From: Candidatus Omnitrophota bacterium
Lineage (GTDB): Bacteria > Omnitrophota > Gorgyraeia > Zapsychrales > Zapsychraceae
NCBI GenBank assembly: GCA_015233115.1
Contig: JADFYJ010000009.1
Location: 12,163-76,162 of the forward strand
Direction of reading: 5' to 3'
Length of the DNA: 64,000 bases
In this document: piece by piece, positions 18,229 through 62,628 of the stretch
Numbering within the stretch: position 1 is the first letter of the stretch
Layout: the number at the start of each line of letters is the position of its first letter
Position numbers and translations under genes: made by a program
The notes under the pieces: model-generated
What the model was told of the DNA's origin: nothing
Seen by the model: only the letters and a program-made list of their open reading frames with translations
Databases searched by the model: none

Positions 18229-18819
18229 ATGAAAGTTGTTAAGTTTTTCATTGCGCTTTTTGTGGGAATTTTGGGGGTAACCAGCGCTGCGTTGGCATTT
18301 GAAAAACGCTTAGCTGCTCCGGCGGATATTCTGCGCCTTAAAAGTGATTTAGTTCAGCAAGTTATTAAGGCCGATGTGGTTCGCATGAAAGATATCCGCG
18401 CCGTATATGGGGATCCGGCTACGATTACAGAGACGGGGAGGCGAATTGTTTTTGATTATAATGACCTTTTTTTGGAATTTGAAAAACAAGTTTTATTTAG
18501 AAAATGGGGTCACGATTTTTCTCAGCCTCAGGCCTGGAGCGCGAATGTTAAAAAAGCCAGAACAGCTATTGAAGGCGGACAAATAACGGGAACTGAATAT
18601 ACTTTGGATCGTTTATACAAAGATTATAAAGATCCAACATTTAAAGTTGAAACTTCCGGCGATGGTGAGCTGTCATATTATTATTATGGAGAAATGAAAT
18701 TAACTTTTGAAAATGTCTATGTTTTGAAATCCTGGAAAGGCAAAAAATTAGAAGCTGTTTATAACACTGGCGTGTTGCAAGCCGTTCCAGAACCAATTCC
18801 TGTTCCTGCGCCTAAATAG
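18229..18819 (+). CDS. Secreted hypothetical protein
   Basis: Signal peptide MKVVKFFIALFVGILGVTSAALA. Stop codon abuts MITE copy J. Confidence 0.55.
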   Translation: MKVVKFFIALFVGILGVTSAALAFEKRLAAPADILRLKSDLVQQVIKADVVRMKDIRAVYGDPATITETGRRIVFDYNDLFLEFEKQVLFRKWGHDFSQPQAWSANVKKARTAIEGGQITGTEYTLDRLYKDYKDPTFKVETSGDGELSYYYYGEMKLTFENVYVLKSWKGKKLEAVYNTGVLQAVPEPIPVPAPK

Positions 18820-22697: not shown

Positions 22698-23589
22698 TCA
22701 TATACGGTGTCTGATCTCGACTGTAATTTCATCGAATGTTCATGGTTTGTGGTTTTGGGTTTTTGGAAAAAACCAATTATTTCAAAAACCAGCAACCAAT
22801 CACCAACAACCAACAACTAACAATTTTATTTTACGAGATCTGACACCGTTACTCGCTGCCTTTTTATTATTTGCCACACCATCGTTCGCTGTCGTTGATT
22901 TTACCGGAGATGTGAACGAATTTATTAAAAATAATCCTGATGGTCAAAAATTTGATTTCATGAGTCGTTATATCGAAACTTTGGGGTATTTGGAGTCGAA
23001 TGAAAAACTTTCAAAACAATTTATTGATGTGAATTTATTGACTGCTCCTGCTGATAAAGTTAAAACTTATTTGGACGCTTTAGTCAACGCGAATGTGAAT
23101 TTACGGGTGTCGCGTAATTACTTAAAACGTTACGGGGCAGTGAATAATGGTTTGATCCGAAAGGTTGTCCAGGATTTTCAATTGGCATGTGATGAGTTGA
23201 TAACTAATAATCAGGGGGAAAGATTATTAGTAGAAAAAATTTATAACGCACAAATGAACCATCAAAAAAGATCAGGGATGAATACAAAGGAATTTTCTTC
23301 GCGCATTGAACAATTAACTGAACAACGACGAGGGACATCAACGAAAATACTGCAAACTTCTATGTGGGCCAGTAAAGTGTTGATCAGTAACAAAGTTGAT
23401 AAATTTGGCAGTTTGTACATGCTTGGGATATCCGCTGATCAACGGAAAGAATTGCTAGAACAGTTATCAAAATATAAAGGTAAAGAATATCGGGGAGAAT
23501 TGCGTCCTGGGCAGTCTTTTTTGCAAGCTAGTATAGCCGCTATCGCTGCGATCCTAGAAGATGAAAGCTGGGGAAATTTAACTAATTGA
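22654..23589 (+). CDS. Secreted hypothetical protein. The N-terminus is encoded by MITE copy F.
   Basis: The ORF passes through the MITE, then a signal-peptide-like LLAAFLLFATPSFA. No canonical start codon downstream of the MITE before the signal peptide. Confidence 0.5.
   Translation: MKNMSYLKKFFKCINHIRCLISTVISSNVHGLWFWVFGKNQLFQKPATNHQQPTTNNFILRDLTPLLAAFLLFATPSFAVVDFTGDVNEFIKNNPDGQKFDFMSRYIETLGYLESNEKLSKQFIDVNLLTAPADKVKTYLDALVNANVNLRVSRNYLKRYGAVNNGLIRKVVQDFQLACDELITNNQGERLLVEKIYNAQMNHQKRSGMNTKEFSSRIEQLTEQRRGTSTKILQTSMWASKVLISNKVDKFGSLYMLGISADQRKELLEQLSKYKGKEYRGELRPGQSFLQASIAAIAAILEDESWGNLTN
22707..22847 (+). mobile_element. MITE-family copy F (long form, forms the 5' end of ORF 22654..23589)
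   Basis: GGTGTCTGATCTCGACTG ... TTTTACGAGATCTGACACC. Confidence 0.7.
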
Positions 23590-40902: not shown

Positions 40903-41511
40903 ATGAGACGAGTATTTCTAACATTTATATTATTGTTTTGCTTTTTTGTAACCGGATGTTCTGTTTTTTCTTTTGCAAAGAAAAAACCGTCTACGACCAC
41001 AGTTACTTTTATCCCTTCTTATCTTCAGGATGCCCATCTCATTAACTCGGAATTATTACGTAAAGGCGGAAATTTATTGATCAGTTCGTTTCTTCCGGGC
41101 ACCGAAGTGGCGGCCGGGCCGGAGGCGGATAATGTTTCGGTCATGGTTGTCCGGGGATTTATGGATGTTTATGAGTCACAAACCAAAGAATTTCAAAAAT
41201 CAAAAATCGATTTAATTTTTTCGGATAAAGAACAAAAACCTGATTTTATTTTAGATGGAAGCATATTAGCCATGGATGTTCCGTCTTTTTTCCAAAAATG
41301 GTTTTTGTTTAAGCACAAAATGACTTTAACGATTGAAGGACAACTTAAAGAAAAAGAATCCGGGAGGATTGTATTCGTGTTTAAAGATACACAAGTTGCT
41401 AGGCTTAAAGGTGGAGACTGGACTGAAATGGGACGTAAACTCGGCCAAAATTTAGCTAAATGGATTTTAGCGGAAGAAGAACGACAGAGCAGAACAGAAA
41501 TTATTAAGTAA
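40903..41511 (+). CDS. Lipoprotein, hypothetical
   Basis: Lipobox LLFCFFVTGCS. Stop codon fused to the CCGAGTAA tandem array. Confidence 0.55.
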   Translation: MRRVFLTFILLFCFFVTGCSVFSFAKKKPSTTTVTFIPSYLQDAHLINSELLRKGGNLLISSFLPGTEVAAGPEADNVSVMVVRGFMDVYESQTKEFQKSKIDLIFSDKEQKPDFILDGSILAMDVPSFFQKWFLFKHKMTLTIEGQLKEKESGRIVFVFKDTQVARLKGGDWTEMGRKLGQNLAKWILAEEERQSRTEIIK

Positions 41512-42840: not shown

Positions 42841-42900
42841 GCTCTGTTACTTTGTTACTCGGTTACTTTGTCACTCGGTTACTCGGTTACTCGGTTACTT
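42841..42900 (-). repeat. Inverted (GTTACTCGG)n array downstream of hldD, upstream of the coiled-coil gene
   Basis: GCTCTGTTACTTTGTTACTCGGTTACTTTGTCACTCGGTTACTCGGTTACTCGGTTACTT. Confidence 0.7.
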
Positions 42901-42914
42901 TTCAAGGAGGTTAT

Positions 42915-44198
42915 ATGATCTGGTTCGTGCTTATAATTATTATCGGGTTTGTTGTCGTTGCTTTGATCCTGATGCTAAATAAGCAAATGGCAGGGAAACA
43001 TCTTCCGCTGGATGCCGTTCCGATTTCTGATATAAACGAGATTAAGGAAATGCGTCAAAATCCCCAGTATAAAAAAGGGAAACCTTTGTCAATTTCGCAG
43101 ACTGTTGACCATTTAGCTTATCATTTGGAAGTGGTTAATAATGAGCGGCTGCCGGAAATCGCCAGAGAGATTGATGGTCTAAAAGGTGAATTCCAGAATA
43201 AACAAGCTGAATCTGAAGAAATGATCCGCCAGTTAAAACTGGATAATCAAAAATTGGAAGACGCGCTTAAACGTGAAATGTCATCTCGGGAAATTAAAAT
43301 TTTGGCAGAAGAGGAAAAACGCCAGCTCAAAGATAAAGACGAGCAGCTGCGCCTCATGCGGGATGCTAATGTTCAACTTAATGATGAAAATAAACGCTTG
43401 CGGGATGACCTGATCCTGCTTCAGAAAGAAAAAACTGAGCTGTTGAAAAAATATGATTCACTGGACCAGGAATTACACGCGAACCGCCTAGAAAAAGAAA
43501 AATGGATGAGCGAAAAACGTGAAACCGAAATGCGGCTGGATATGACCCGCATGGAAATGGAAAAAGATTTTCAATCAAAACTTGCGGAACAGTCTCAAAT
43601 GCTGGGGAACAAACATTTAGAATTAGCGAATAATAAAGCTGGTCTGGAATTAGAGTATCAAAAAATTACGAATATCGCTGAAGAGTTAAAATCACAAAAA
43701 TCCGCGCTGGAAATCCGCTGTACCTCATCAGATATTGAAATTGATTCCTTACGGAAACAAGTTGATTACTTGAGCAAGGCCAATGCCGGGCAAGTGGATA
43801 ATTTAAAGGCTGAAATCATGAAGTTGAATTTCGAATTAGATAATAAAGCCCAAGAATTTACCGGAATTTTGCGGCAAAGGGAAGATATTCACGGCGATAT
43901 TAACCGCGCTGTTGATAAAGTTCGGGATGAGTATCGATTGGTCGTGGATGAGCGGATTAAACAATTAGATACCTTAAACCATCAAATAAAATTTTTACAG
44001 GATGAACATGATGAGTTGAGTAAGGAAAAACGTGCTGTGGAGACAAAGCTGGAAAATGCCGATCAAGTGACGGCGCGAATGCAAGAAAGGGAACGTCAAT
44101 TAAATTATGAGTTGGTAAAAGCTAGGGCTCAAATTTTAGGGTTAGAGCGTATTTGTAGTGATTATCGCTTAAGAGTGGAATCATTATCGAAGGTTTAG
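42915..44198 (+). CDS. Membrane-anchored coiled-coil protein (RmuC-like layout, function unknown)
   Basis: N-terminal TM helix (IWFVLIIIIGFVVVALILML) then about 400 aa of heptad-rich sequence. AAGGAGG RBS before ATG 42915. Confidence 0.5.
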   Translation: MIWFVLIIIIGFVVVALILMLNKQMAGKHLPLDAVPISDINEIKEMRQNPQYKKGKPLSISQTVDHLAYHLEVVNNERLPEIAREIDGLKGEFQNKQAESEEMIRQLKLDNQKLEDALKREMSSREIKILAEEEKRQLKDKDEQLRLMRDANVQLNDENKRLRDDLILLQKEKTELLKKYDSLDQELHANRLEKEKWMSEKRETEMRLDMTRMEMEKDFQSKLAEQSQMLGNKHLELANNKAGLELEYQKITNIAEELKSQKSALEIRCTSSDIEIDSLRKQVDYLSKANAGQVDNLKAEIMKLNFELDNKAQEFTGILRQREDIHGDINRAVDKVRDEYRLVVDERIKQLDTLNHQIKFLQDEHDELSKEKRAVETKLENADQVTARMQERERQLNYELVKARAQILGLERICSDYRLRVESLSKV

Positions 44199-44822: not shown

Positions 44823-45332
44823 ATGAAAAAATCACTTATCATAATGTTAGCCCTTATCAGCATGGCTTTGTCCGCCTGCTCTTCTATTCAAGAAGCCGGC
44901 CGCAAAGTCTGGGGCACATCGACGACATATTTGGATCCGTCTCGTTGTGAGGCGCTTTCTAAAACATATACGTGCGCTTATGATGATTGTTATGACGCAG
45001 TTTTGAGTTTGAGTAATGTTGTTGTTGAGCAACTTAAAAACGCGCCTAAAGAAACGAATCAAATTTTAAAAGGCATTAAAACAAAACCATCGGTTTTAAT
45101 ACACGCCGGAAATCCTTTTTCAGTTTTTCAAGAAGACCGCTTGCGCGGCATCATTGTCCTGATGGATGTGCCGGGTCAGGTTGATACAACAGAAATAGGA
45201 GTATTTTTTACGAAATATTCCGGGACAAAGGATGTAAAGCTGGAAATAACATCACTTAGCACCATGGCGCGCAACAAAGCCGCCCAAGCGATTTTTAATT
45301 TGTTGGATTCAAAATTCCCGGTTGCAAAGTAA
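44823..45332 (+). CDS. Lipoprotein, hypothetical
   Basis: Lipobox MALSACSS. TTGCAA-N16-TATAAT at 44787-44814 lies directly upstream, which may give a leaderless transcript. Confidence 0.55.
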   Translation: MKKSLIIMLALISMALSACSSIQEAGRKVWGTSTTYLDPSRCEALSKTYTCAYDDCYDAVLSLSNVVVEQLKNAPKETNQILKGIKTKPSVLIHAGNPFSVFQEDRLRGIIVLMDVPGQVDTTEIGVFFTKYSGTKDVKLEITSLSTMARNKAAQAIFNLLDSKFPVAK

Positions 45333-53050: not shown

Positions 53051-54874
53051 ATGAAACGAATGTTGTCCATATTTTTGGGATTGATCAGTTTCTTCACATT
53101 GGCGGTGACGACTGCTTTTGCTGTTCAAGACGGCATGGGTCGCGACATTTTTCTCGGCAATGTGGGAATTGGTATAACTGCGCCGACCCAATCGTTGGAA
53201 GTTACTGGTGTTGGTAAATTTAATGGTGTCATGATAGCCCAGGATTTAACCATGGGCACAAACACAGCCGGATATATGCTGGTCGGGGATGGCAATGGTT
53301 TCGCGCCTGTCGCGATGAGCGGGGATGTAACAATAGACAAATTGGGTGTGACGAAAATAAATGTCTCTGGCGCCTCAACAACTGTCGCCATCACCAATGA
53401 CACATCCACTAACGCCACTATGAATTTGGTCTGGTCAGCAGGGACGAACGGGAATCAGGCGCTGAAGGTTTCGTCGACTGGGTTTATGTATAATCCATCG
53501 CTGGGGAATATCGGTATTGGTACCTCAGCATTAACTACTTCCAGATTGCATGTTCGCGGCGCGGGAACGACTACTGGAGAGGCCTTTGCTGTGCAAGATT
53601 CTACTTTGTCAGATAATTTTGTGGTTTTGGATAATGGGAATGTGGGTATTGGAAATACAACTAACATATTTTCTAAATTGACAGTCAATGCTCCCTATAA
53701 CTCTACAAATAATGTTCCGGACGCGTTATTGGCTTCTGCTTCGACGGGTATTGGCGATGTCGCGACTAATTATAGGTATGTTGGTGAGTTTCAGGCAAGG
53801 GCGGGGAATACTAGCCGCTTGCAAATTGCCGCTTACCGCCGTCTTGCTGGATCAAACTGGACCGGGTTAGGGTGGCGGTTACAATACGCGGTTGATACTT
53901 CATTTTCAGATGGTTCCAAGGCTTACATAGAAATTGGAGGCGATGATCCCAATAATGCCAGCGGAGGGTTTATATCTTTAGGGACTGAAGGCCTTGATCG
54001 TTTAGTGGCTACTTCGGCGGGGAACATTGGCATTGGGACAACGGCTCCTTCCCAAAAATTAGAAGTCGCTGGTGTCGGTAAATTCATTGGTGCCATATTA
54101 TCTCAAGATTTAACCATGTCCACGAACACGGCCGGTTACGTCTTAGCGGCTGACGGAAATGGTTTTGCTCCCATGCAAATGACCGGCGATGTGACGATTG
54201 ATAAAACCGGACACACTTATGTTGGGTCAGTCGCGAATGTCGCCATCACCAATGATGTTTCTACCAATGCCACCATGAATTTGGTCTGGTCAGCTGGTGT
54301 AAGCGGAAATCAGGCGTTGAAAGTTTCTTCGACCGGGCTGATGTATAATCCGTCGTTAGGAAATATTGGAATCGGAACCTCGGATTTAACCGGCGCCAGG
54401 TTGAGGGTTCGCAGCGTAGGCGGAACAACTGGCCAGGCGTTTTCTGTGCAAGACACAACGCTGAATGACAGATTTACGGTTTTGGATAATGGCAATGTGG
54501 GAATAGGGACAAGCGCGCCTGGCGTTAAATTGAATGTATCGGGTGGTTCGGCAGTCGTGAATGAAAAATCTTTAACGACCACAGCTACCATCAATATCGA
54601 TTGGTCTTTAGGTAATCAGCAATATGTCGGTCTTAATCAAGCTGGCCATACTATTACTTTCACAAATGCGTTGGCAGGGGAAGCTGTTCGCCTCATCATG
54701 TGCCAAAGCAACGCGAATAGCACGGTCACTACCTGGGACGCTTCAATAGTCTGGTCCGGAGGCTCAGCCCCAACTTTATCCACCACTGCGGGCAAATGCG
54801 ATGTGTGCTCTTTTATCGCGACCAACGCCAAAGGCTCACTTAAAGTGCTGGGGACGGCTACGACGAATTTTTAA
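53051..54874 (+). CDS. Secreted repeat protein with tail-fibre-like motifs (two repeats of about 290 aa)
   Basis: Signal peptide. Repeated (N/G)NVGIGTTAPSQKLEV.GVGKF and LDNGNVGIG units, duplicated internally. Confidence 0.55.
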   Translation: MKRMLSIFLGLISFFTLAVTTAFAVQDGMGRDIFLGNVGIGITAPTQSLEVTGVGKFNGVMIAQDLTMGTNTAGYMLVGDGNGFAPVAMSGDVTIDKLGVTKINVSGASTTVAITNDTSTNATMNLVWSAGTNGNQALKVSSTGFMYNPSLGNIGIGTSALTTSRLHVRGAGTTTGEAFAVQDSTLSDNFVVLDNGNVGIGNTTNIFSKLTVNAPYNSTNNVPDALLASASTGIGDVATNYRYVGEFQARAGNTSRLQIAAYRRLAGSNWTGLGWRLQYAVDTSFSDGSKAYIEIGGDDPNNASGGFISLGTEGLDRLVATSAGNIGIGTTAPSQKLEVAGVGKFIGAILSQDLTMSTNTAGYVLAADGNGFAPMQMTGDVTIDKTGHTYVGSVANVAITNDVSTNATMNLVWSAGVSGNQALKVSSTGLMYNPSLGNIGIGTSDLTGARLRVRSVGGTTGQAFSVQDTTLNDRFTVLDNGNVGIGTSAPGVKLNVSGGSAVVNEKSLTTTATINIDWSLGNQQYVGLNQAGHTITFTNALAGEAVRLIMCQSNANSTVTTWDASIVWSGGSAPTLSTTAGKCDVCSFIATNAKGSLKVLGTATTNF

Positions 54875-55066: not shown

Positions 55067-56959
55067 ATGCAAAATCACGTTCCTTTTCTCTTATATTCCT
55101 TGATGCTTTTCCCATTAGCCATTGCTGTCTTGTCCTTAATTAATCGCTGGCCTGGCTTATTTAAAAAATTTATTTATCCGGCTGTTATCGTTTTAATTGC
55201 TGGGTCATTGGCTTTACTGGCTATTCCGTTAAAAGGGACGCCTATCTTTGTTGCTGCAGATTTTAGCTGGGTTGAGCAGGCGATGTTGGTTATCGAAGTA
55301 TTGTTAGCCGTGTATCTTTTATGGCTAGCATTGAAACGCAAGGATTTGATTGTCACAGCTTTGTTAGTCGTCCAGACTTCCATTTTATTATTCTTCCATT
55401 TTGGAGCAGGCCATCACGCGCACGCCGAAGCCAATCTTTTCCTGGATCTTTTTTCAGTTATCATGGCTTTAATAATTGGGGTGATCGGCAGTTTAATTGC
55501 CATGTACGCAGTAGGTTATATGGAAGACTTCCATGAACATCATGCGGAAGTCAAAGACCGTAGGCCGTTATTTTTAGGGCTGATTTTTATTTTTCTTTCC
55601 GCCATGTTTGGCGTTTGCTTCTCTAATAATCTTATGTGGTTATTATTCTTCTGGGAGATCACTACAGTTTGTTCTTTCTTACTTATCGGATATAAGGGAG
55701 ATGAACAATCCATCACCAATTCGTTTTTAGCTTTGCGCTGGAATCTTTTAGGCGGGTTGGCCTTTTTATTGGGGATTGTTATCCTGTTTAAGAATTGTCA
55801 CACTATTGAATTAAACCAGATGATGACTTTATCAAAATCTTTGGTCATGTTGCCGGTTGCTTTATTATGTTTTGCCGGTATTACTAAATCCGCTCAATTG
55901 CCCTGCTCCTCATGGTTAGTCGGAGCCATGGTTGCGCCGACACCGGTATCTGCTTTGCTTCATTCCAGCACCATGGTTAAAGCTGGTGTTTATCTGGTTT
56001 TGCGTTTTGCCGGACAATTAGGGGGAACAACATTAGGTTTGTTTGTAGCGATGATCGGTCTCGCAACCTTTTTGATCGGGTCTTTTATTTGTATCAGTCA
56101 AAATGACGGTAAAAAGATTTTGGCTTATTCCACGATCGCGAATTTGGGTTTGATCATTCTTTGCGCTGGTGTCGGAACATACGAAGCTGTATGGGCAGGG
56201 ATACTTTTAATTATTTTCCATGCTATCGCAAAAGGCCTTTTGTTTTTGTGCGTGGGAGCAATTGAACATCAGACCGGAAGCCGTCAGGTAGAAGATATGA
56301 CAGGATTAATTGTGCGGTTGCCGAAAATAGCCGTCATGCTGCAGATTGGTATAGCAGGCATGTTCTTGGCGCCGTTTGGTATGCTGATTAGCAAATGGGC
56401 TGTTTTGAGAGCGATCGTTGATTTTAGCCCGTTCATGGCGGTGTTTTTGATATTCGGTAGTGCGGCGACATTATTTTTCTGGGTCAAGTGGATTGGGAAA
56501 ATTTTGATTGTTGACCGGGTATATGAAAAAATTGAGACCAGATTACCCTCTGGTCAAATGATTGCTATGGGTACACTTTCCGTGTTAACTGTTTTGATCT
56601 GCGGTTGTTTTGCGGTAGTTGCGCATTATATGATTGATCCTTATGTTGCCGCGATTTATGGAAATGTGACAGTATTAAGTCAAGGAAATGTGGTTGTTAT
56701 GGGTATCATGCTTTTGATGGTGTGTTTATTCCCGGTCACATTTTTAGATTATGGGAGCGGGGTTAAAATGGCAGATCCTTATTTAGGCGGAGCTAATGTG
56801 GGCACAGGAAATCAATACCGCGGCGCTTTGGCAGTGAAAGATATGGAAATGAAAAATTATTATTTGGACGATTATTTTAATGAAGGCCGGTTAATGACTT
56901 TGGGTGTGATGCTGGGTGTGATTTTTAGCCTGGGCCTTATTGTATGGGGGGGAATGTGA
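55067..56959 (+). CDS. echA: Energy-converting hydrogenase (Ech) membrane subunit A (antiporter-like, NuoL/HyfB family)
   Basis: 630 aa, about 16 TM helices, proton-pumping antiporter-like motifs. First gene of an A-F order cluster. Confidence 0.8.
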   Translation: MQNHVPFLLYSLMLFPLAIAVLSLINRWPGLFKKFIYPAVIVLIAGSLALLAIPLKGTPIFVAADFSWVEQAMLVIEVLLAVYLLWLALKRKDLIVTALLVVQTSILLFFHFGAGHHAHAEANLFLDLFSVIMALIIGVIGSLIAMYAVGYMEDFHEHHAEVKDRRPLFLGLIFIFLSAMFGVCFSNNLMWLLFFWEITTVCSFLLIGYKGDEQSITNSFLALRWNLLGGLAFLLGIVILFKNCHTIELNQMMTLSKSLVMLPVALLCFAGITKSAQLPCSSWLVGAMVAPTPVSALLHSSTMVKAGVYLVLRFAGQLGGTTLGLFVAMIGLATFLIGSFICISQNDGKKILAYSTIANLGLIILCAGVGTYEAVWAGILLIIFHAIAKGLLFLCVGAIEHQTGSRQVEDMTGLIVRLPKIAVMLQIGIAGMFLAPFGMLISKWAVLRAIVDFSPFMAVFLIFGSAATLFFWVKWIGKILIVDRVYEKIETRLPSGQMIAMGTLSVLTVLICGCFAVVAHYMIDPYVAAIYGNVTVLSQGNVVVMGIMLLMVCLFPVTFLDYGSGVKMADPYLGGANVGTGNQYRGALAVKDMEMKNYYLDDYFNEGRLMTLGVMLGVIFSLGLIVWGGM

Positions 56960-56960
56960 C

Positions 56961-56990
56961 CTAAATTTCGAATTTGAATTCGAAATTTAG
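56961..56990. terminator. Perfect palindrome after echA
   Basis: CTAAATTTCGAATT-tg-AATTCGAAATTTAG. Confidence 0.5.
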
Positions 56991-57009
56991 GAGGAGATAT
57001 AGACGCCGT

Positions 57010-57055
57010 TGTAGGGGCGATCACCCGATCGCCCGTTATAAAATTATCGTTTTTT
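57010..57055 (+). repeat. REP-A hairpin upstream of echB
   Basis: GTAGGGGCGATCACCCGATCGCCCGTTATAAAATTATCG. Confidence 0.7.
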
Positions 57056-57137
57056 TATTTAAAATTGGTAAATATATTAGGACAAGCAGCATTAGAAATT
57101 TTAAAATCGATGGATTTAAATAGGAGTTGGTTATAAT

Positions 57138-57986
57138 ATGAACATATGGATTCTGATTGTATATTTGTTTGGCGCGCCGATTGTAGGTGGATTATTAGCC
57201 GGCTTGGATCGCAAGGTGACAGCCCGCATGCAAAGTCGTATGGGGCCGCCGATATTACAGCCGTTTTATGATGTGTTGAAACTTTTGAAAAAAGAAACGC
57301 TGGTCGTCCGTCCATCTCAAACACTGTACATGGAATTCTTTTTTATCCTGACTATTTTTACCGGCGCTTTGTTTTTTTCCGGCGGGGATTTACTGCTGAT
57401 TATTTTTGCGTTAACCTTGGCCTGTGTGTTTTTTGTCTTGGGAGGTTTTAAAGCCAGCTCGCCGTATAGTTTTATCGGCGCGCACCGCGAAGCTTTGCAG
57501 ATGATGGCATATGAACCTGCCTTACTGATGGTCGCTGTCGGAATGTATATGGTTACCAAGAGTTTTCAGGTGATTGATATTATCAAATATCCGACACCTT
57601 TGATTGTCGTTTTACCCGGCATATTTTTTGCTTTCTTTTTTATTCTACCGATTAAATTCCGTAAATCACCTTTCGATCTTTCCACATCCCATCACGCGCA
57701 TCAGGAATTAGTGAAGGGGATTTTGACGGAATTTTCCGGCAAGACTTTAGCGCTGATCGAAGTGGCGCATTGGTATGAAAATGTTTTTGTATTAGGTTTA
57801 GTGTATTTATTTTTTGCATCCAATGTCTGGCTGGGTTTGAGTATGGCGTTGGTCGTATTTTTGGCCCAGATGTTAATTGACAATGCTTCAGCCAGAGTCA
57901 GATGGCAGGCTATGTTAGGGAGCGCCTGGCTGGTTGCTTTAGTCATCGGCGGTATAAATATTATTTATTTGATGGCGAGAGGCTAA
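57138..57986 (+). CDS. echB: Ech hydrogenase membrane subunit B (NuoH/HycD-like)
   Basis: 282 aa, 8 TM helices, NuoH-like conserved MQSRMGPP region. Confidence 0.8.
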   Translation: MNIWILIVYLFGAPIVGGLLAGLDRKVTARMQSRMGPPILQPFYDVLKLLKKETLVVRPSQTLYMEFFFILTIFTGALFFSGGDLLLIIFALTLACVFFVLGGFKASSPYSFIGAHREALQMMAYEPALLMVAVGMYMVTKSFQVIDIIKYPTPLIVVLPGIFFAFFFILPIKFRKSPFDLSTSHHAHQELVKGILTEFSGKTLALIEVAHWYENVFVLGLVYLFFASNVWLGLSMALVVFLAQMLIDNASARVRWQAMLGSAWLVALVIGGINIIYLMARG

Positions 57987-58008
57987 ATAGGGAAATCCTA
58001 TTTAGCCT

Positions 58009-58047
58009 GTCACAAGACACAAGTCACATGTCACAAGGTCACAAAGG
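58009..58047 (+). repeat. Solo GTCACAA-type heptamer array after echB
   Basis: GTCACAAGACACAAGTCACATGTCACAAGGTCACAAAGGG, followed by AAAGCGATTGGTGA. Preceded by palindrome GGCTAAATAGG-gaaat-CCTATTTAGCC (57981-58007). Confidence 0.65.
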
Positions 58048-58196
58048 GTAGAAAAGATTATATAAAAGCGATTGGTGAATAAATTATTAATGAAAAATCA
58101 ATAATCAATTTTTATGTTAAATTTTTTGTTTTTACATTTCACTTTTCACGTATCACATTTCACTTTTGAAATGTCAAATGGACAGGACAGTTAATA

Positions 58197-58648
58197 TGAG
58201 TATGTTATCAAAATCACCGTGGATTATTCATTATGATGGATCTAGCTGTAATGGTTGTGATATCGAAGTTTTGGCTGCTTTAATGCCAAGATATGATTTG
58301 GAACGTTTTGGTATTTTGAATACCGGAAATCCGAAACATGCGGATATCCTCTTATTGACCGGCTCAATTAATGAGCAAAATAAATCAGTGGTTCTTAATA
58401 TTTATAACCAAATGCCGAATCCAAAAGTGGTGATCGCCGTAGGAATATGCGCGACATCCGGCGGGGTTTTTAGAGAATGTTATAATGTTTTGGGTGGAGC
58501 GGACAAAGTTGTTCCAGTAGACGTTTACGTTCCATCCTGTCCGATTCGTCCGGAAGCATTAATTGACGCGGCCGTTAAAGCGTTAGGAATTTTAGAGAAA
58601 AAAAGAGTGGACTTAAAAACGGGGGACATGATACTTAATTCAAAATAA
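58197..58648 (+). CDS. echC: Ech hydrogenase small subunit (NuoB-like, [4Fe-4S])
   Basis: CNGCDIE...GICATSGG...PSCPIRP cysteine pattern of NuoB / hydrogenase small subunit. Confidence 0.85.
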
Positions 58649-58721
58649 ATTACTGAATTAAGTTTCGTGTCCCCCGATCTTCGAAAACTGAAATAATAAT
58701 GTTTGTTATAAAGGCGAAAAA

Positions 58722-59096
58722 ATGACACAGCAAACGATCACAGAAATTTCTATTGGCGATCTTTTAAATAAGGTCAGAGCATTTAAATATGAAGGCTGGC
58801 GCCTGGTACAGATCTGCTGTACAAAATTGCCGGATGTTTTAGAATTGCAGTATTCTTTTGATAAAGATTATGTTTTCAACAGCTTGAAAATTGTTTTAAA
58901 AGATACTTCGACGGCAGTTCCCAGTGTAAGCGGAATTTATTTAAGCGCTTTTCTTTATGAAAACGAAATCCATGATTTGTTTGGGATCAATGTGCAGGGT
59001 ATTGCGGTGGATTACAAAGGTGAATTTTACCGAACACAGGTGAAACACGGGTTTAACCAAGAAGTTCAGCCAGCAGGAGAGAAGAGTAATGAGTAA
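58722..59096 (+). CDS. echD: Ech hydrogenase subunit D (NuoC-like)
   Basis: 124 aa NuoC/30-kDa-subunit-like. Overlaps the echE start by 8 nt. Confidence 0.75.
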   Translation: MTQQTITEISIGDLLNKVRAFKYEGWRLVQICCTKLPDVLELQYSFDKDYVFNSLKIVLKDTSTAVPSVSGIYLSAFLYENEIHDLFGINVQGIAVDYKGEFYRTQVKHGFNQEVQPAGEKSNE

Positions 59097-60168
59097 GCGG
59101 ACCATTGTTCCTTTTGGCCCCCAGCATCCTGTTTTGCCTGAGCCGATCCATTTGGATCTGGTTTTGGAAGACGAGAAAGTGGTTGAGGCTATTCCTTCGA
59201 TTGGTTTTGTGCATCGCGGTTTGGAAAAATTAGTCGAGAAGCGGGATTTTATTGATTTTACGTATGTGGCAGAACGTATTTGCGGCATTTGTAGTTTTAT
59301 CCACGGCCTTACTTATTGCATGGCTGTTGAAGAACTTATGAAGATAGAAGTACCTGAACGCGCGCAGTATTTACGGACGATCTGGTCGGAATTGTCTCGT
59401 ATTCACAGCCATTTGCTTTGGCTTGGTTTAACCGCTGACGCTTTCGGTTTTGAAAATTTATTTATGCAATCATGGCGTTTACGCGAATATATTTTAGATA
59501 TAATTGAAGAAACAACCGGCGGCCGGGTTATTTTTGGCTCAGCCAAAATCGGCGGTGTCCGCCGGGATATTACTCCTGAAAAATTGGATGAGATTTTAAA
59601 GAAAATACGTTCTTATCAAAAAGAAATGTTAGAGATTGGTTCTTATTTTCTCGAAGATTCTACTGTCAAGCATCGTTTACAGGGAATTGGTATTTTGTCA
59701 AAAGAAGATGCCCAGGCTTTAGGCGCGGTTGGTCCTATGTTACGCGCCAGCGGTGTGTCTATGGATATCCGTATGATGGGTTATGCCGCTTATGGTAAAG
59801 TGGGATTCGCTCCGGTTGTTGAAACGGCCGGTGATTCATATGCCCGCTGTAAAGTGCGTATTCGTGAATTAGACCAATCCGTCGATATTATTGAAAAATG
59901 CGTTCAGCAGATGAAAGAAGGCCCGGTGGAGATTAAGGTAACCGGTTTTCCGAATGGAGAATTTTTTGCCCGGTCTGAACAGCCGCGCGGGGAAGTTATT
60001 TATTACGCGAAAGCCAATGGTACGAAATTTTTACAAAGAATGCGCGTGCGTACTCCGACCTTTGCTAATATCACGCCGTTATTATCAGTATTAAAAGGCT
60101 GTCAATTAGCTGATGTTCCGATCTTAGTATTGACCATTGATCCTTGCATTAGTTGTGCGGAAAGATAA
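59089..60168 (+). CDS. echE: Ech [NiFe]-hydrogenase large subunit (group 4)
   Basis: N-terminal RICGICSFIHG (L1) and C-terminal DPCISCAER (L2) Ni-Fe ligand motifs. No C-terminal extension. Confidence 0.9.
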   Translation: MSKRTIVPFGPQHPVLPEPIHLDLVLEDEKVVEAIPSIGFVHRGLEKLVEKRDFIDFTYVAERICGICSFIHGLTYCMAVEELMKIEVPERAQYLRTIWSELSRIHSHLLWLGLTADAFGFENLFMQSWRLREYILDIIEETTGGRVIFGSAKIGGVRRDITPEKLDEILKKIRSYQKEMLEIGSYFLEDSTVKHRLQGIGILSKEDAQALGAVGPMLRASGVSMDIRMMGYAAYGKVGFAPVVETAGDSYARCKVRIRELDQSVDIIEKCVQQMKEGPVEIKVTGFPNGEFFARSEQPRGEVIYYAKANGTKFLQRMRVRTPTFANITPLLSVLKGCQLADVPILVLTIDPCISCAER

Positions 60169-60184
60169 AAATATAGACTGTAAA

Positions 60185-60211
60185 GGTCACAAAGTCACAA
60201 GGTCACAAAGG
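60185..60211 (+). repeat. Solo GTCACAA-type heptamer array after echE
   Basis: GGTCACAAAGTCACAAGGTCACAAAGGG, followed by AAAGCGATTGGTGA. Confidence 0.65.
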
Positions 60212-60273
60212 GAAGTAAAGATAAGAAAAGCGATTGGTGAGAAAAAAACATTAAATATATTGGATAAGATAAT

Positions 60274-60609
60274 ATGAAATTTTTATTAATGGTGAAGTCA
60301 GTTGTTAAAAATTTGGTTCGTGGCCCAGTCACGGAGCGGTATCCTTTTGTTCCTAAAAAGTTTTTTAAGGGGACGCGTGGACAGGTGCTTATCGAGATAA
60401 AGAAATGTATTTTCTGCGGGCTGTGTCAGCGGAAATGTCCTTCGCAGGCTATTGTGGTAACGAAAGATAAAAAGAATTGGGAAATTGACCGTTTACGCTG
60501 CGTATCTTGTGCCGCTTGCGTGGACGTTTGCCCGGTTAAGTGTTTAGCGATGGATACAAAATACGCGCCATGTTCTGACAAGCGTTACAAGGATGCTTTC
60601 AATGCATGA
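60274..60609 (+). CDS. echF: Ech hydrogenase 2x[4Fe-4S] ferredoxin subunit (NuoI-like)
   Basis: CIFCGLCQRKCP and CVSCAACVDVCP motifs. Confidence 0.85.
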   Translation: MKFLLMVKSVVKNLVRGPVTERYPFVPKKFFKGTRGQVLIEIKKCIFCGLCQRKCPSQAIVVTKDKKNWEIDRLRCVSCAACVDVCPVKCLAMDTKYAPCSDKRYKDAFNA

Positions 60610-60946
60610 GTGTCATCAAGTTCAAAAAGTTGTAACTGAAGCACAGGCTATGCTGAAGGAAAAAGGCATACAAGATCCCAAGAAAGCCAATTTGGTTGTC
60701 GGAGAATTATTAGGGTTTGATGAAGGATGCATCCGTTTGTATTGGGAAGAAATGACTCAGTCAACACCTTTATCAAAAACTGCATTGTCGATTCAATTCG
60801 TTCCAGCCATGCTGGAATGCGCGGCTTGTAAAATTAAATTCGCGAAAAAAGGTTCTAATCTTCTTTGTCCACAGTGCAATAAAATCGGCACGCTTCCTCC
60901 TTCAGGATCGTCAGGAAAAGAATTCTTCATAAATAAAATTGAATAG
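60602..60946 (+). CDS. hypA: Hydrogenase nickel-insertion protein HypA
   Basis: MHECHQVQKV N-terminus. CAACK...CPQCN zinc finger. Confidence 0.85.
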   Translation: MHECHQVQKVVTEAQAMLKEKGIQDPKKANLVVGELLGFDEGCIRLYWEEMTQSTPLSKTALSIQFVPAMLECAACKIKFAKKGSNLLCPQCNKIGTLPPSGSSGKEFFINKIE

Positions 60947-60967
60947 TATGTAGTATGTAGTATGTGG
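60944..60967 (+). repeat. Heptamer array TAGTATG x3 after hypA
   Basis: TAGTATGTAGTATGTAGTATGTGG. Confidence 0.65.
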
Positions 60968-61192
60968 TGAAAAACGATAGATGGGAGATAATATACGAAA
61001 GAATATATAATTTTATAGAGCGAGTGTTATTTTTTAAATTTTTTGGGTTTTATTGACTACATTCTTATAGAAAAAACATGCCTTTTAAAATTATTTTATT
61101 TCGTTCTTTTTCTCGTCGCTGTTTTTGTTAAATAAATACTACATGCTTTTAATGACGTTTTTTCAATTATTCGTTTTTTTGATTTTTGTTAT

Positions 61193-61253
61193 TTACCACA
61201 TACCACATACTACATACTACATACTACATACTACATACTACATACTACATACT
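61193..61253 (-). repeat. Inverted heptamer array (CATACTA)x8 upstream of the HypC-radical SAM gene
   Basis: CCACATACCACATACTACATACTACATACTACATACTACATACTACATACTACATACTC. Confidence 0.75.
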
Positions 61254-61269
61254 CTAATAGGATAAACAT

Positions 61270-62571
61270 ATGTGTTACGCCATTCCTGGACAAGTTAAAT
61301 CCTTTGACGGAAAATTTGTCTTGGTTGATTATTTTGGTGAACAAAAAAAAGCGATCAATGAGTTAAGCGCGTTGAAGGTGGGGGATTATGTGTACGCGCA
61401 AGGCGGCTTTGTCATTACCAAGGTGAGCCAGAGTGAGGCATTGCAGACTTTGGAGACGTGGAAGGACCTTTTCTTCGAATTAAAGGACATTGACGACCGC
61501 AGTGTCAAAGATATGCCTTGGGCCGGAGCTAAATTTGCAAAAGTCCGGGATATGTTTGACTGTGTATCGGCTGACGGCAAGATTTCTTTACAGGATCTGC
61601 AATATTTGTTGTCATCAAAAGATGCTGGCGAACGAGAATTTATCCGCAACGCGGCCAATCAAAGCCGTCATAAATATCACGGCAATTCCTGCTGCGTGCA
61701 CGGTATTATTGAAATCGGTAATGTGTGCGATCAAGTGTGTCATTATTGCGGGATTTCCCGTCTGAATACATCATTGACCCGCTACCGGATGTCAAAAGAA
61801 GAAATCTTAGAGTCAGTACGCGTCGCGGTTGAGGATTATGGTTTTAAAGCATTAGTTTTGCAAAGTGGAGAGGATGCTGATCGTCCGATTATTGAATTAG
61901 TTGACATCGTCACGGAAATCAAAAAACGTTTTGGCGTTTTAATTTTTGTCAGTTTTGGTGAAGTTGGGAGGGAAGGATTAGAACAATTATATACTGCCGG
62001 CGCCCGCGGGCTTTTGTTGCGTTTTGAATCATCCAACCCTAACATTTATCAGGAACTTCATCCTGGATCCAATTTGGATGACCGTTTAAAAGATTTACGT
62101 TATGCGAATGAGTTGGGTTACTTGATCATCACCGGATCTTTGGTTGGATTGCCTGGTCAAACCGCTGAGGATATCAGCCGTGATATTCAGCTGGCTGGTG
62201 AGTTAAATGTCGAAATGCTCAGCATGGGGCCGTTTTTGCCACACCCGCATACCCCCTTAGCCCATAATTTACCTCCGACAAAAGAAGCCGTTGTTCAAGT
62301 ATTAGCTGCTGCAAGATTTTATCTGCCTTCACATGTAAAAATCTTAGTGACGACAGGTTTAGAAACGCTTAATGCGGAAGCCCGCGAACTGGCTTTTCGT
62401 TCCGGCGCTAATTCCATGATGTTAAATGTCACCCCGCAAGAAAAAAAACTGCTGTACGAAATTTACCCGGATCGTGCCCATCAAAATGAATCATTAGCTG
62501 TTCAAATTGATTCTGCCAAAAATTTACTACAAAGTCTAGGCCGAGCGCCTACGGATTTAAGCTTTCGTTAA
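61270..62571 (+). CDS. Fusion protein: HypC/HupF-like N-terminal domain plus a HydE/BioB-like radical SAM domain
   Basis: MCYAIPGQVKSFDGKFVLVDYFG..VGDYVYAQGGFV (HypC signature MC[LIY]AIP) for about 75 aa. Then CDQVCHYC (CX3CX2C), GGE-like and TIM-barrel radical SAM features. Single ORF of 433 aa. Confidence 0.7.
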   Translation: MCYAIPGQVKSFDGKFVLVDYFGEQKKAINELSALKVGDYVYAQGGFVITKVSQSEALQTLETWKDLFFELKDIDDRSVKDMPWAGAKFAKVRDMFDCVSADGKISLQDLQYLLSSKDAGEREFIRNAANQSRHKYHGNSCCVHGIIEIGNVCDQVCHYCGISRLNTSLTRYRMSKEEILESVRVAVEDYGFKALVLQSGEDADRPIIELVDIVTEIKKRFGVLIFVSFGEVGREGLEQLYTAGARGLLLRFESSNPNIYQELHPGSNLDDRLKDLRYANELGYLIITGSLVGLPGQTAEDISRDIQLAGELNVEMLSMGPFLPHPHTPLAHNLPPTKEAVVQVLAAARFYLPSHVKILVTTGLETLNAEARELAFRSGANSMMLNVTPQEKKLLYEIYPDRAHQNESLAVQIDSAKNLLQSLGRAPTDLSFR

Positions 62572-62574
62572 ACC

Positions 62575-62628
62575 GTTGGACCACCGCGTCGGTGAGCCAT
62601 GGTCCACCGACGCGGTGGTCCAACGGTC
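62575..62628 (+). terminator. REP-B long palindrome (22-bp perfect stem) after the HypC-radical SAM gene
   Basis: CCGTTGGACCACCGCGTCGGTG-agccatggt-CACCGACGCGGTGGTCCAACGG. Confidence 0.6.

Follow-up and report, generated by a model that had tools for sequence, protein, structure and literature searches.

Directly downstream of an Ech-type [NiFe] hydrogenase operon, a Candidatus Omnitrophota bacterium encodes a protein in which a HypC-like domain and a HydE-type radical-SAM barrel are joined in a single open reading frame. Hundreds of species of anaerobic bacteria encode the same fusion next to their [NiFe] hydrogenase genes, and this points to a way of assembling the [NiFe] active site that has not been described. 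How anaerobes obtain the CO ligand of their [NiFe] hydrogenases is a long-standing question, and the systems that mature [NiFe] hydrogenases (Hyp) and [FeFe] hydrogenases (HydEFG) are regarded as unrelated; to our knowledge, HydE is known only from [FeFe]-hydrogenase assembly. The widespread and conserved fusion, together with its gene cluster, physically connects the iron carrier of [NiFe] maturation with the enzymes responsible for making and processing Fe(CO)2(CN) in the [FeFe] system, and represents a concrete candidate for a second pathway to the [NiFe] cofactor. Our best explanation, which we put forward tentatively, is that a HydE-paralogous barrel tethered to a HypC-type carrier serves as a dedicated [NiFe]-hydrogenase maturation factor, whereby an iron-carbonyl/cyanide unit is loaded onto HypC by HydG/HydE-type chemistry.

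The fusion gene and its genomic context

The features surrounding the fusion gene in the window, by which we mean the whole stretch of 64,000 nucleotides that was analysed, are collected in Table 1. The Pfam domains found across the ech operon comprise Proton_antipo_M, NADHdh, Oxidored_q6, Complex1_30kDa, Complex1_49kDa together with NiFeSe_Hases, and Fer4. The following hypA gene probably starts at Met4 (position 60602), which gives an MHE N-terminus, and the fusion gene begins 324 bp past its end. The intervening spacer, bordered by repeat arrays, is an insertion specific to the window; the closest relative (L010) is devoid of it and has a spacer of approximately 20 bp. The palindrome directly past the fusion stop codon may form a transcript-end hairpin; it has no T-run and was not called by intrinsic-terminator prediction. 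In line with the sequence-only reading, which had noted the lack of hypB, hypD, hypE and hypF, searches of the window by tblastn, blastp and Pfam scans of most ORFs detected no HypB, HypD, HypE or HypF, nor any HydG, HydF or HydA.

Table 1 Features of the fusion gene and its surroundings in the window
Feature	Position	Strand	Basis or remarks
echABCDEF-like group 4 [NiFe] hydrogenase operon	55067..60609	+	six genes, Pfam
EchA	55067-56959	+	
EchB	57138-57986	+	
EchC	58166-58648	+	
EchD	58722-59096	+	
EchE (large subunit)	59089-60168	+	RICGIC and C-terminal DPCISCAER in sequence
EchF	60274-60609	+	
hypA (Ni metallochaperone)	60593..60946	+	Pfam HypA 65 bits, aa 4-117
Spacer between hypA and the fusion	60944..61253	.	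inverted heptamer arrays (TAGTATG)x3 and (TACTACA)x8.6 at its ends
hypC~hydE fusion gene	61270..62571	+	433 aa
HypC-like OB-fold domain (aa 1-75)	61270..61494	+	Pfam HupF_HypC; alignment to HypC structures
Helical linker (aa 76-98), extending long helix 54-80	61495..61563	+	AF2 secondary structure
HydE-type radical-SAM (beta-alpha)8 barrel (aa 99-427)	61564..62550	+	TIGR03956, TmHydE match, TM 0.92
Clade-specific C141-C142-V-H144, strand beta1	61690..61701	+	alignment
Radical-SAM cluster motif C153-X3-C157-X2-C160	61726..61749	+	sequence; invariant among fusions
28-nt-arm palindrome directly past the fusion stop codon	62572..62627	.	

The fusion is encoded in one unbroken frame that opens with MCYAIPGQV. 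Its Pfam matches are HupF_HypC (residues 1-64, 51.9 bits against a cut-off of 28.5), Radical_SAM (residues 147-308, 67.7 bits) and BATS (residues 323-402, 31 bits), and its top NCBIfam match is HydE (TIGR03956, residues 99-424, 229.8 bits). The latter score misses the curated equivalog cut-off of the model (254.6 bits), which other members of the same clade pass (P0124 with 348, P0129 with 371 and P0144 with 264 bits). The barrel is nevertheless of the HydE type and not of the BioB type, since its TIGR03956 score lies far above those for PylB (117.8 bits) and BioB (TIGR00433, 97.6 bits against a cut-off of 225). A phmmer search of the PDB matched Thermotoga maritima HydE with an E value of 2e-64, and the AF2 model of the fusion (pLDDT 92, pTM 0.92, with low confidence at residues 1-3) superimposes on this enzyme (3IIZ) with a TM score of 0.92, an rmsd of 1.7 A and 38% identity, compared to a structural identity of 18-20% with BioB. 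Profile scores and structure comparison hence rule out a BioB or PylB identity. Frame, Pfam, NCBIfam and AF2 thus bear out the description of a HypC and radical-SAM fusion directly after echABCDEF-hypA, whereas the proposed 'HydE/BioB type' has to be narrowed down to a HydE paralog.

An atypical HypC domain

HypC normally works together with HypD, HypE and HypF, usually encoded as hypCDE(F), and binds iron via the thiolate of Cys2. The residues M1, C2, Y3, I5, P6, G7 and Q44 are invariant in 58 fusions, and the N-terminus MCYAIPG was scored as carrying the motif of the iron-binding Cys2, MC(L/I/V)(G/A)(L/I/V)P. In alignments Gln44 (61399-61401) occupies the position of the canonical HypC histidine (H51 in E. 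coli), which is conserved in the E. coli, T. kodakarensis and 3D3R HypC proteins; across the fusions this position is a glutamine in 214 of 223 and a histidine in none. The histidine has been reported to be important for HypD binding. The domain scores above the Pfam cut-off and below that of the NCBIfam model TIGR00074 (41.9 bits, cut-off 48). It was initially described as a complete HypC; the exchange of histidine for glutamine makes it an atypical one.

Distribution of the architecture

The fusion is encoded in at least 401 GTDB species genomes, mostly Omnitrophota but also Margulisiibacteriota, Spirochaetota and others. As a single ORF it is present in at least 120 protein clusters with identities down to 53%, and clustering at the 50% level yields approximately 20 clusters with the fusion, with identities down to 34%. 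This recurrence across clusters and hundreds of genomes excludes a sequencing frameshift or artefact, and with it the suspicion that two separate genes had been read as one. No account of a HypC-HydE fusion, or of a link between HydG and [NiFe] hydrogenases, was found in the searchable literature, in keeping with the initial impression that the architecture had not been described. NCBI labels many of the fusion proteins simply HydE; even if their chemistry differs from that proposed below, the labels 'HydE', 'biotin synthase' and 'HypC' are misleading for them.

Coupling to [NiFe] hydrogenase operons and HydG

Related loci were viewed as neighbourhoods of ±10 kb around the fusion genes, 1.55 Mb in total. 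A [NiFe] operon is located within 6 kb upstream and on the same strand in 66 of the 74 informative fusion loci (89%). Of these operons, 30 are of the group 4 type and 36 of the group 3 type. HycI is encoded in 44 loci and HypA in 42. Taken together with the profile scores, this linkage runs counter to the possibility, raised at the outset, that the radical-SAM part is a BioB-like enzyme with homologues unlinked to hydrogenases.

HydG, a tyrosine lyase that produces Fe-CO/CN, is encoded within 10 kb of the fusion in 40 of 80 loci, and in 29 of 78 it lies within 3 kb downstream of the fusion or is fused to it. The C-terminal CX2CX22C motif is found in most of these HydG proteins. A variant C-terminal motif, CX5CX5CX14C, was considered as a [NiFe]-specific mark and rejected; it also occurs in the hydF-hydG-hydE set of L088 and therefore looks lineage-specific. 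In the triple fusions HypC~HydE~HydG the HydG part scores 607-631 bits (cut-off 312), and these genes, with L079 as a further example, likewise adjoin [NiFe] operons. In two loci (L093 and L096) unfused members of the fused HydE clade are encoded with HydG directly beside [NiFe] subunit genes. The Ech-type clade of the window itself (the window, L001-L004, L010-L018 and others) has no adjacent HydG. Each locus appears to hold one copy of HydG, with no difference in type between copies beside the fusion and copies beside an [FeFe] set, and its adjacency may in part mirror a general hydrogenase super-locus, in which Rex is often encoded and HydABC is nearby in seven loci.

HypD, HypE and HypF gave zero matches in the 1.55 Mb of fusion loci; the corresponding genes may sit elsewhere in these genomes. 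L095 also encodes a standalone canonical HypC with the histidine, so the classical Hyp route may coexist with the fusion. An additional radical-SAM gene in L095 appears RlmN-like by eye from its cluster motif and was deemed unrelated. In these loci HydF is seen only with unfused HydE and never beside the fusion. A HydE-HydG fusion without HypC (P0153) adjoins an [FeFe]-type protein (Fe_hyd_lg_C) and HydF.

A separate HydE paralog in the fusion

The fused HydE domains group as one clade that retains the CX3CX2C motif and, as invariant M316 and M384, the equivalents of Met224 and Met291, which are described in a review as internal-cavity residues of HydE. Residues common to the canonical and fused clades line the SAM site and the upper substrate pocket, and their conservation suggests that the fused enzyme is likely to act on the same class of substrate. 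According to the same review, the HydE product site (S3) consists of a threonine and two arginines, given as residue types only, and their mutation impairs [FeFe] maturation. In the alignment, the canonical Arg54, Thr134 and Arg155 are replaced in the fusion by H144, F226 and G247, and 107 of 108 clade members possess a Cys-x-His (Cys142, His144) in place of the (H/Y/F)-x-Arg of canonical HydE. Judging by conservation and barrel topology, R54, T134 and R155 are the presumed S3 residues, and the three replaced positions probably correspond to the product site.

An unlikely alternative is that the two domains were joined merely through co-regulation in organisms with both hydrogenase types, HypC serving the classical HypCDEF route to [NiFe] and HydE the classical HydEFG route to [FeFe] hydrogenases. 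The conserved upper catalytic pocket, the NCBI annotation of many members as HydE, and the occurrence of [FeFe] HydABC, Rex and HydG in the same neighbourhoods of several genomes (L001, L022, L027, L032 and L046) would all be compatible with such an arrangement. However, L022, L032 and L088 harbour the fusion plus a canonical hydG/hydE(/hydF) set beside HydABC, and a separate canonical HydE is present at least in L032 and L088 and partially in L022, L027, L047 and L053, so that the fused copy would be redundant. The second canonical HydE with HydG and HydF in some loci rules out the fusion as the sole HydE of those genomes and identifies it as an extra, specialised paralog. Furthermore, the systematic exchange of two arginines and one threonine, the loss of the HypC histidine tied to HypD binding, the consistent lack of HydF beside the fusion and the [NiFe] adjacency of even the unfused clade members argue against two independent classical functions.

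A model for HypC loading and its alternatives

Behind the architecture, its conservation, its linkage in the genomes with [NiFe] operons and HydG, the paralog status and the residue pattern that we observe, we infer a chemistry of four steps for the dedicated maturation factor. HydG would convert tyrosine into the (cysteinate)Fe(CO)2(CN) synthon; it would be supplied from beside the fusion in many lineages, as part of the same polypeptide in some, and in the clade of the window from elsewhere or from a pool shared with an [FeFe] system. The fused HydE, having kept its SAM site and substrate pocket, would direct the customary 5'-deoxyadenosyl attack at the synthon sulfur. The product would bypass the Arg/Thr product site and HydF dimerisation, and a mono-iron carbonyl/cyanide unit would instead be retained at the remodelled Cys-x-His/Met site. 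Finally, this unit would pass to Cys2 of the tethered HypC and from there to the large subunit of the [NiFe] hydrogenase, in this case EchE, with nickel inserted afterwards by HypA. The stoichiometry counts against this explanation, as the synthon is Fe(CO)2(CN) and the [NiFe] site Fe(CO)(CN)2.

The sequence-only reading had envisaged a ligand-synthesis or scaffold-loading step. This reading is partly borne out, as the HydE-type fusion is conserved and linked to [NiFe] hydrogenases. The fused HydE is more likely to process and load the HydG-made Fe(CO)2(CN) synthon than to synthesise CO. HydG is the likely ligand synthase; it is adjacent in about half of the related loci and fused in some. In a broader version, which we regard as somewhat unlikely, Omnitrophota and several other anaerobic phyla would make the [NiFe] Fe(CN)2(CO) unit, or at least its CO, from tyrosine by means of HydG, and the remodelled Cys/His site of the HypC-tethered HydE paralog would replace the HypD scaffold. 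If true, the [NiFe] cofactor would be built by radical-SAM chemistry that bypasses HypD, HypE and HypF partly or wholly and links [FeFe] and [NiFe] maturation mechanistically. A compact set consisting of the structural genes, hycI, hypA, hypC~hydE and hydG could also ease the heterologous production of [NiFe] hydrogenases.

Distinctly improbable, in our estimate, is a different radical reaction of the HydE-like domain on a HypC-bound species that requires no HydG, such as the release of CO from another precursor at the iron bound to Cys2, or the modification or cleavage of the Cys-S-Fe adduct; this lies near the original idea of a CO-ligand synthase. We know of no HydE-family member that makes CO, and both the SAM and upper-pocket residues shared with canonical HydE and the adjacency or fusion of HydG in many lineages speak against it. 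In its favour are the window's own clade without adjacent HydG, the lower barrel cavity with its new Cys and His, and, together with the iron-binding Cys2, the reported action of HydE on the sulfur of an iron-bound cysteine (review). Still somewhat less probable is the co-option of the HypC-like domain as a Cys-bearing carrier in [FeFe] H-cluster assembly with a merely coincidental, regulatory proximity to [NiFe] genes: the glutamine in place of histidine and the sister architecture of Se_S_carrier (PF11823) and HydE that adjoins HydG would fit, but in 89% of informative loci the fusion follows immediately on [NiFe] structural genes accompanied by hycI and hypA, this linkage spans two hydrogenase groups and several phyla, no second HypC was found in those [NiFe]-linked loci, HydF is absent beside the fusion, and HydA is nearby in only seven loci.

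Comparison with known maturation systems

The fusion shares with T. maritima HydE (PDB 3IIZ, 7O1O) the full (beta-alpha)8 barrel, CX3CX2C, the methionine pair and many cavity residues. It differs by its N-terminal HypC domain, by the lack of auxiliary-cluster cysteines, by the replacement of Arg54, Thr134 and Arg155 and the gain of Cys-x-His in the fused clade, and by adjoining [NiFe] rather than [FeFe] genes without HydF. Like HypC/HybG/HupF (E. coli 2OT2, T. kodakarensis 2Z1C) it has MC-x-x-(I/V)-P with the essential Cys2, an OB-fold with a C-terminal helix and a PF01455 score above threshold; unlike them it carries glutamine for histidine and a covalent radical-SAM partner, with no hypD, hypE or hypF nearby. 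As in the HydG-HydE-HydF pathway to the [2Fe]H subcluster, HydG with its CX2CX22C auxiliary-cluster motif is adjacent or fused to a HydE-type domain, which implies that the HydG product is handed to the HydE-type barrel, but the loci are without the scaffold HydF and their structural genes are of the [NiFe] type.

HydEF of Chlamydomonas is a known maturase fusion and, like the HydE-HydG fusion P0153, resembles HypC~HydE in joining consecutive maturation enzymes, fitting the channelling of a labile organometallic intermediate. In contrast to these two, which are confined to the [FeFe] system, HypC~HydE crosses the boundary between [FeFe] and [NiFe] maturation. Aerobes use HypX, a formyl-THF decarbonylase, as [NiFe] CO-ligand synthase; the fusion would similarly be an accessory supply of diatomic ligands to the [NiFe] iron centre beyond HypCDEF, but with an unrelated fold and chemistry and in strictly anaerobic lineages.

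The hypC~hydE gene and its surroundings

The HypC and radical-SAM parts that the sequence-only reading had placed in one gene do share an uninterrupted ORF, to which Pfam assigns HupF_HypC (aa 1–64), Radical_SAM (aa 147–308) and BATS (aa 323–402) domains. Of the 'HydE/BioB type' ascribed to the barrel only the HydE half stands; HydE TIGR03956 is the top NCBIfam match (aa 99–424, 229.8 bits, slightly below the 254.6 cut-off), and PylB (117.8 bits) and BioB (97.6 bits) score far lower. A PDB sequence search aligned the barrel with T. maritima HydE (TmHydE; E 2e-64) and the N-terminus with HypC structures. With 58 homologs as input, AF2 gave a confident model (pLDDT 92.2, pTM 0.92), whose barrel superimposes on TmHydE with a TM score of 0.92 and an rmsd of 1.7 Å at 38% identity, compared to 18–20% identity with BioB. 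Upstream, Pfam identifies hypA and an Ech-type group 4 [NiFe] hydrogenase of six genes, as had been proposed, and the reported absence of hypB, hypD, hypE and hypF was confirmed: neither these nor HydG, HydF or HydA are detectable within the 64-kb window.

Features of the window around the fusion gene
Feature	Position	Strand	Description
hypC~hydE fusion gene	61270–62571	+	single ORF, 433 aa, N-terminus MCYAIPGQV
(TAGTATG)x3.1 array	60944–60965		hypA side of spacer
(TACTACA)x8.6 array	61194–61253		fusion side of spacer
Palindrome	62572–62627		28-nt arms, almost perfect, no loop; immediately 3' of fusion stop codon
hypA ORF	60593–60946		listed N-terminus MLSMHECH
607-aa ORF	53051–54874		just upstream of echA; signal-peptide-like N-terminus

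The 324-bp spacer between hypA and the fusion is bordered by inverted heptamer arrays (60944–61253), whose arms are 100% complementary over 25 nt and 91% over 32 nt; in the closest relative (locus L010) the spacer measures only ~20 bp and is devoid of repeats. The arrays look like a small inserted inverted-repeat/SSR element, which, a short way 5' of the start codon, could fold in the mRNA or change its copy number. The palindrome has no T-run, and no intrinsic terminator was called there. Since the conserved Ni-binding N-terminus of HypA is MHE, Met4 (60602) is suggested as its true start. The 607-aa ORF carries an internal duplication with halves rich in Gly/Thr/Asn. At E ≤ 1e-5, Pfam matches none of several sizeable ORFs (196–670 aa) at 18229–18819, 20685–23589, 40903–41511, 42852–44198 and 44823–45332. 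Some Omnitrophota fuse the Ech small subunit (Oxidored_q6) to a GNAT acetyltransferase (304 aa; L001 3381–4295, L002 3284–4198), unlike the 160-aa EchC of the window.

Distribution and coupling to [NiFe] hydrogenase operons

The two-domain architecture recurs, at identities as low as 53%, in at least 120 clusters of proteins grouped at 90% identity; among representatives at the 50% level, searched exhaustively, about 20 clusters contain full-length fusions, with identities reaching down to 34%. When each GTDB species was represented by one genome, 401 genomes proved to encode a relative, the majority Omnitrophota; further submitter-given labels are Margulisiibacteriota/Saganbacteria/WOR-1, Spirochaetota/Brevinematales, Elusimicrobia, Fibrobacterota and Syntrophales. 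A protein identical to that of the window is annotated simply as HydE in an NCBI 'Candidatus Omnitrophica' MAG. Recurrence across clusters and species rules out a frameshift or other sequencing artefact as the source of the fusion.

ORFs were called in every fetched locus and labelled by BLAST against E. coli Hyp proteins and HycI, the Ech proteins of the window, a group 3 operon, HydG, HydA, HydF and Rex. The sequence upstream was long enough in 74 species loci, and in 66 of these a [NiFe] hydrogenase operon precedes the fusion within 6 kb on the same strand. The anticipated association with group 4 enzymes accounts for 30 of these operons (six-subunit Ech sets like that of the window, or larger Mbh-like sets), but 36 are group 3-type (Fer4_22, NAD-binding, small and large subunits). 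HycI is found in 44 loci and HypA in 42. Because the flanking genes beyond it vary among genomes, it is the hydrogenase-fusion unit itself that is conserved. The eight exceptional loci hold the fusion in unrelated contexts, at times still with HypA and HydG. A fusion of convenience joining two independent pathways is an improbable reading, albeit the strongest of the alternatives.

The fused HydE as a specialised paralog

Neighbour-joining of 237 HydE domains gathers the fused ones in a single clade (108 tips), apart from TmHydE, other canonical HydEs and unfused HydEs of the same genomes. The fused HydE is a specialised paralog. Column analysis (whose own numbering is +1 relative to TmHydE) found CX3CX2C, Met224, Met291 and ~35 further positions common to both groups. 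The fused clade replaces Arg54 by His144, Thr134 by Phe226, Arg155 by Gly247, His52 by Cys142 (usually preceded by Cys141) and Asp154 by Arg246, and has a conserved C-terminal A-P-T-D stretch of its own. The resulting C-x-H motif occurs in 107 of the 108 members, triple fusions and unfused members included, where canonical HydE has (H/Y/F)-x-R. A structural review describes product site S3 of TmHydE as holding an Fe(CO)2(CN) species via Met224; the threonine and two arginines of this site, whose mutation it says impairs [FeFe] maturation, we infer to be Arg54, Thr134 and Arg155. The modelled location of the changed residues at the barrel bottom (N-terminal ends of strands β1, β3, β4 and β8) is consistent with this assignment.

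An atypical HypC domain

The N-terminus, previously regarded as a complete HypC, retains Cys2 and the MC..IP motif invariantly across the fusions. What it lacks is a His that HypC conserves in E. coli, in T. kodakarensis and in structure 3D3R; the window has Gln44 at this position, and of 223 fusions 214 have Gln and none has His. The lost His is important in HypD binding, according to an editorial on Haase and Sawers. In L095, the locus of the most divergent fusion (34% identity), a standalone HypC keeps the His that the fused domain has lost. By these residues the HypC domain of the fusion is atypical. Across 1.55 Mb of fusion loci, tblastn with E. coli queries gave no match to HypD, HypE or HypF; HypB occurs once, and a second HypC only in L095. 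Short HypA-like ORFs (80–86 aa) recur in 57 related loci, one type preceding the group 3 operon, another immediately ahead of the fusion (e.g. L038 5238–5498, L042 9751–9993); their weak Pfam HypA match covers the N-terminal two-thirds only.

Association with HydG

HydG homologs, most with the auxiliary-cluster motif CX2CX22C, lie within 10 kb of the fusion in 40 of 80 loci; in 29 of 78, HydG is fused to it or within 3 kb downstream. Two proteins, P0124 (906 aa) and P0129 (881 aa), are HypC~HydE~HydG triple fusions whose HydG portions score 607–631 bits (cut-off 312) and whose genes lie within or beside group 3-type [NiFe] operons having HycI or HypA. On the complete Omnitrophota chromosome of L079 a group 4 operon, HycI and HypA precede a triple fusion. 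Unfused HydEs of the clade, with HydG following, come immediately behind the gene of a [NiFe] large subunit in L093 and, in L096, are transcribed divergently from genes of the [NiFe] small and large subunits; in L095 standalone HypC, fusion and HydG adjoin a group 3 operon in this order. No HydG is adjacent to the fusion in the BLAST-labelled loci of the window's own Ech-type clade. That the radical reaction acts on iron bound to HypC independently of HydG is a doubtful reading, less probable than a fusion of convenience.

HydG in the fusion loci may also be common to a co-resident [FeFe] system. L022 packs a group 3 [NiFe] operon, HycI and the fusion into 11 kb and continues with Rex, [FeFe]-type HydB/HydA/HydC (Pfam Fe_hyd_lg_C), HydG and a HydE that is not fused; L032 and L088 have hydG-hydE-hydF sets besides the fusion. 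P0153, a HydE-HydG fusion without HypC, neighbours an Fe_hyd_lg_C protein and HydF, in contrast to the fusion loci. That the HypC-like domain is a carrier co-opted into [FeFe] maturation is the least probable alternative, set against the [NiFe] operons that precede the fusion.

A subset of HydGs (L039, L042, L049, L050, L057, L058, L070, L074, L079, L081, L083 and L088) replaces CX2CX22C with a four-Cys SFCTAGYRCGRTGxCIM...C arrangement (CX5CX5CX14C). It also occurs in the hydF-hydG-hydE set of L088 and therefore seems lineage-specific rather than [NiFe]-specific; the L096 HydG has yet another variant, CX2CX18CX5C. A Rex-type repressor (Put_DNA-bind_N + CoA_binding; 33 related loci) is often the first gene after the fusion, and frequently separates it from HydG or from an [FeFe] HydABC operon (e.g. 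L028 3877–4512, L022 11470–12102). In a sister architecture (P0168, P0187, P0189 and P0211) an N-terminal 'putative Se/S carrier' (PF11823) takes the place of HypC, and these genes directly follow a HydG-like gene (L091 3036–5735), which suggests that small Cys-carrier domains tethered to HydE are a more general theme.

Proposed pathway and comparison with known systems

Gene fusion, a neighbourhood conserved in several phyla and with two hydrogenase groups, paralogy and a coherent residue pattern are best fitted by a putative [NiFe]-dedicated HydE that processes a HydG-type synthon for its tethered HypC. The fused HydE would accept the (cysteinate)Fe(CO)2(CN) synthon and keep the mono-iron product at its Cys/His/Met site instead of handing it to HydF; the product would then be loaded onto Cys2 of HypC, which would deliver the iron unit to the hydrogenase large subunit. 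Through the fusion, the question of the anaerobic [NiFe] ligands becomes directly testable.

As the sequence-only reading had surmised, the searchable literature, mostly outside subscription journals, yielded no account of HypC fused to HydE, nor of a HydG/HydE role in [NiFe] maturation; the component families are known, and their combination and the implied pathway appear undescribed. Against the proposed pathway stand the differing CO:CN stoichiometries of the [NiFe] active site and the HydG synthon, the lack of an adjacent HydG in the window's clade and the possible sharing of HydG with a co-resident [FeFe] system. In HypD, the Fe(CN)2CO unit is bound by the Cys of the CGxHxH motif jointly with Cys2 of HypC, and by analogy the new C-x-H site of the fused HydE may play a corresponding role.
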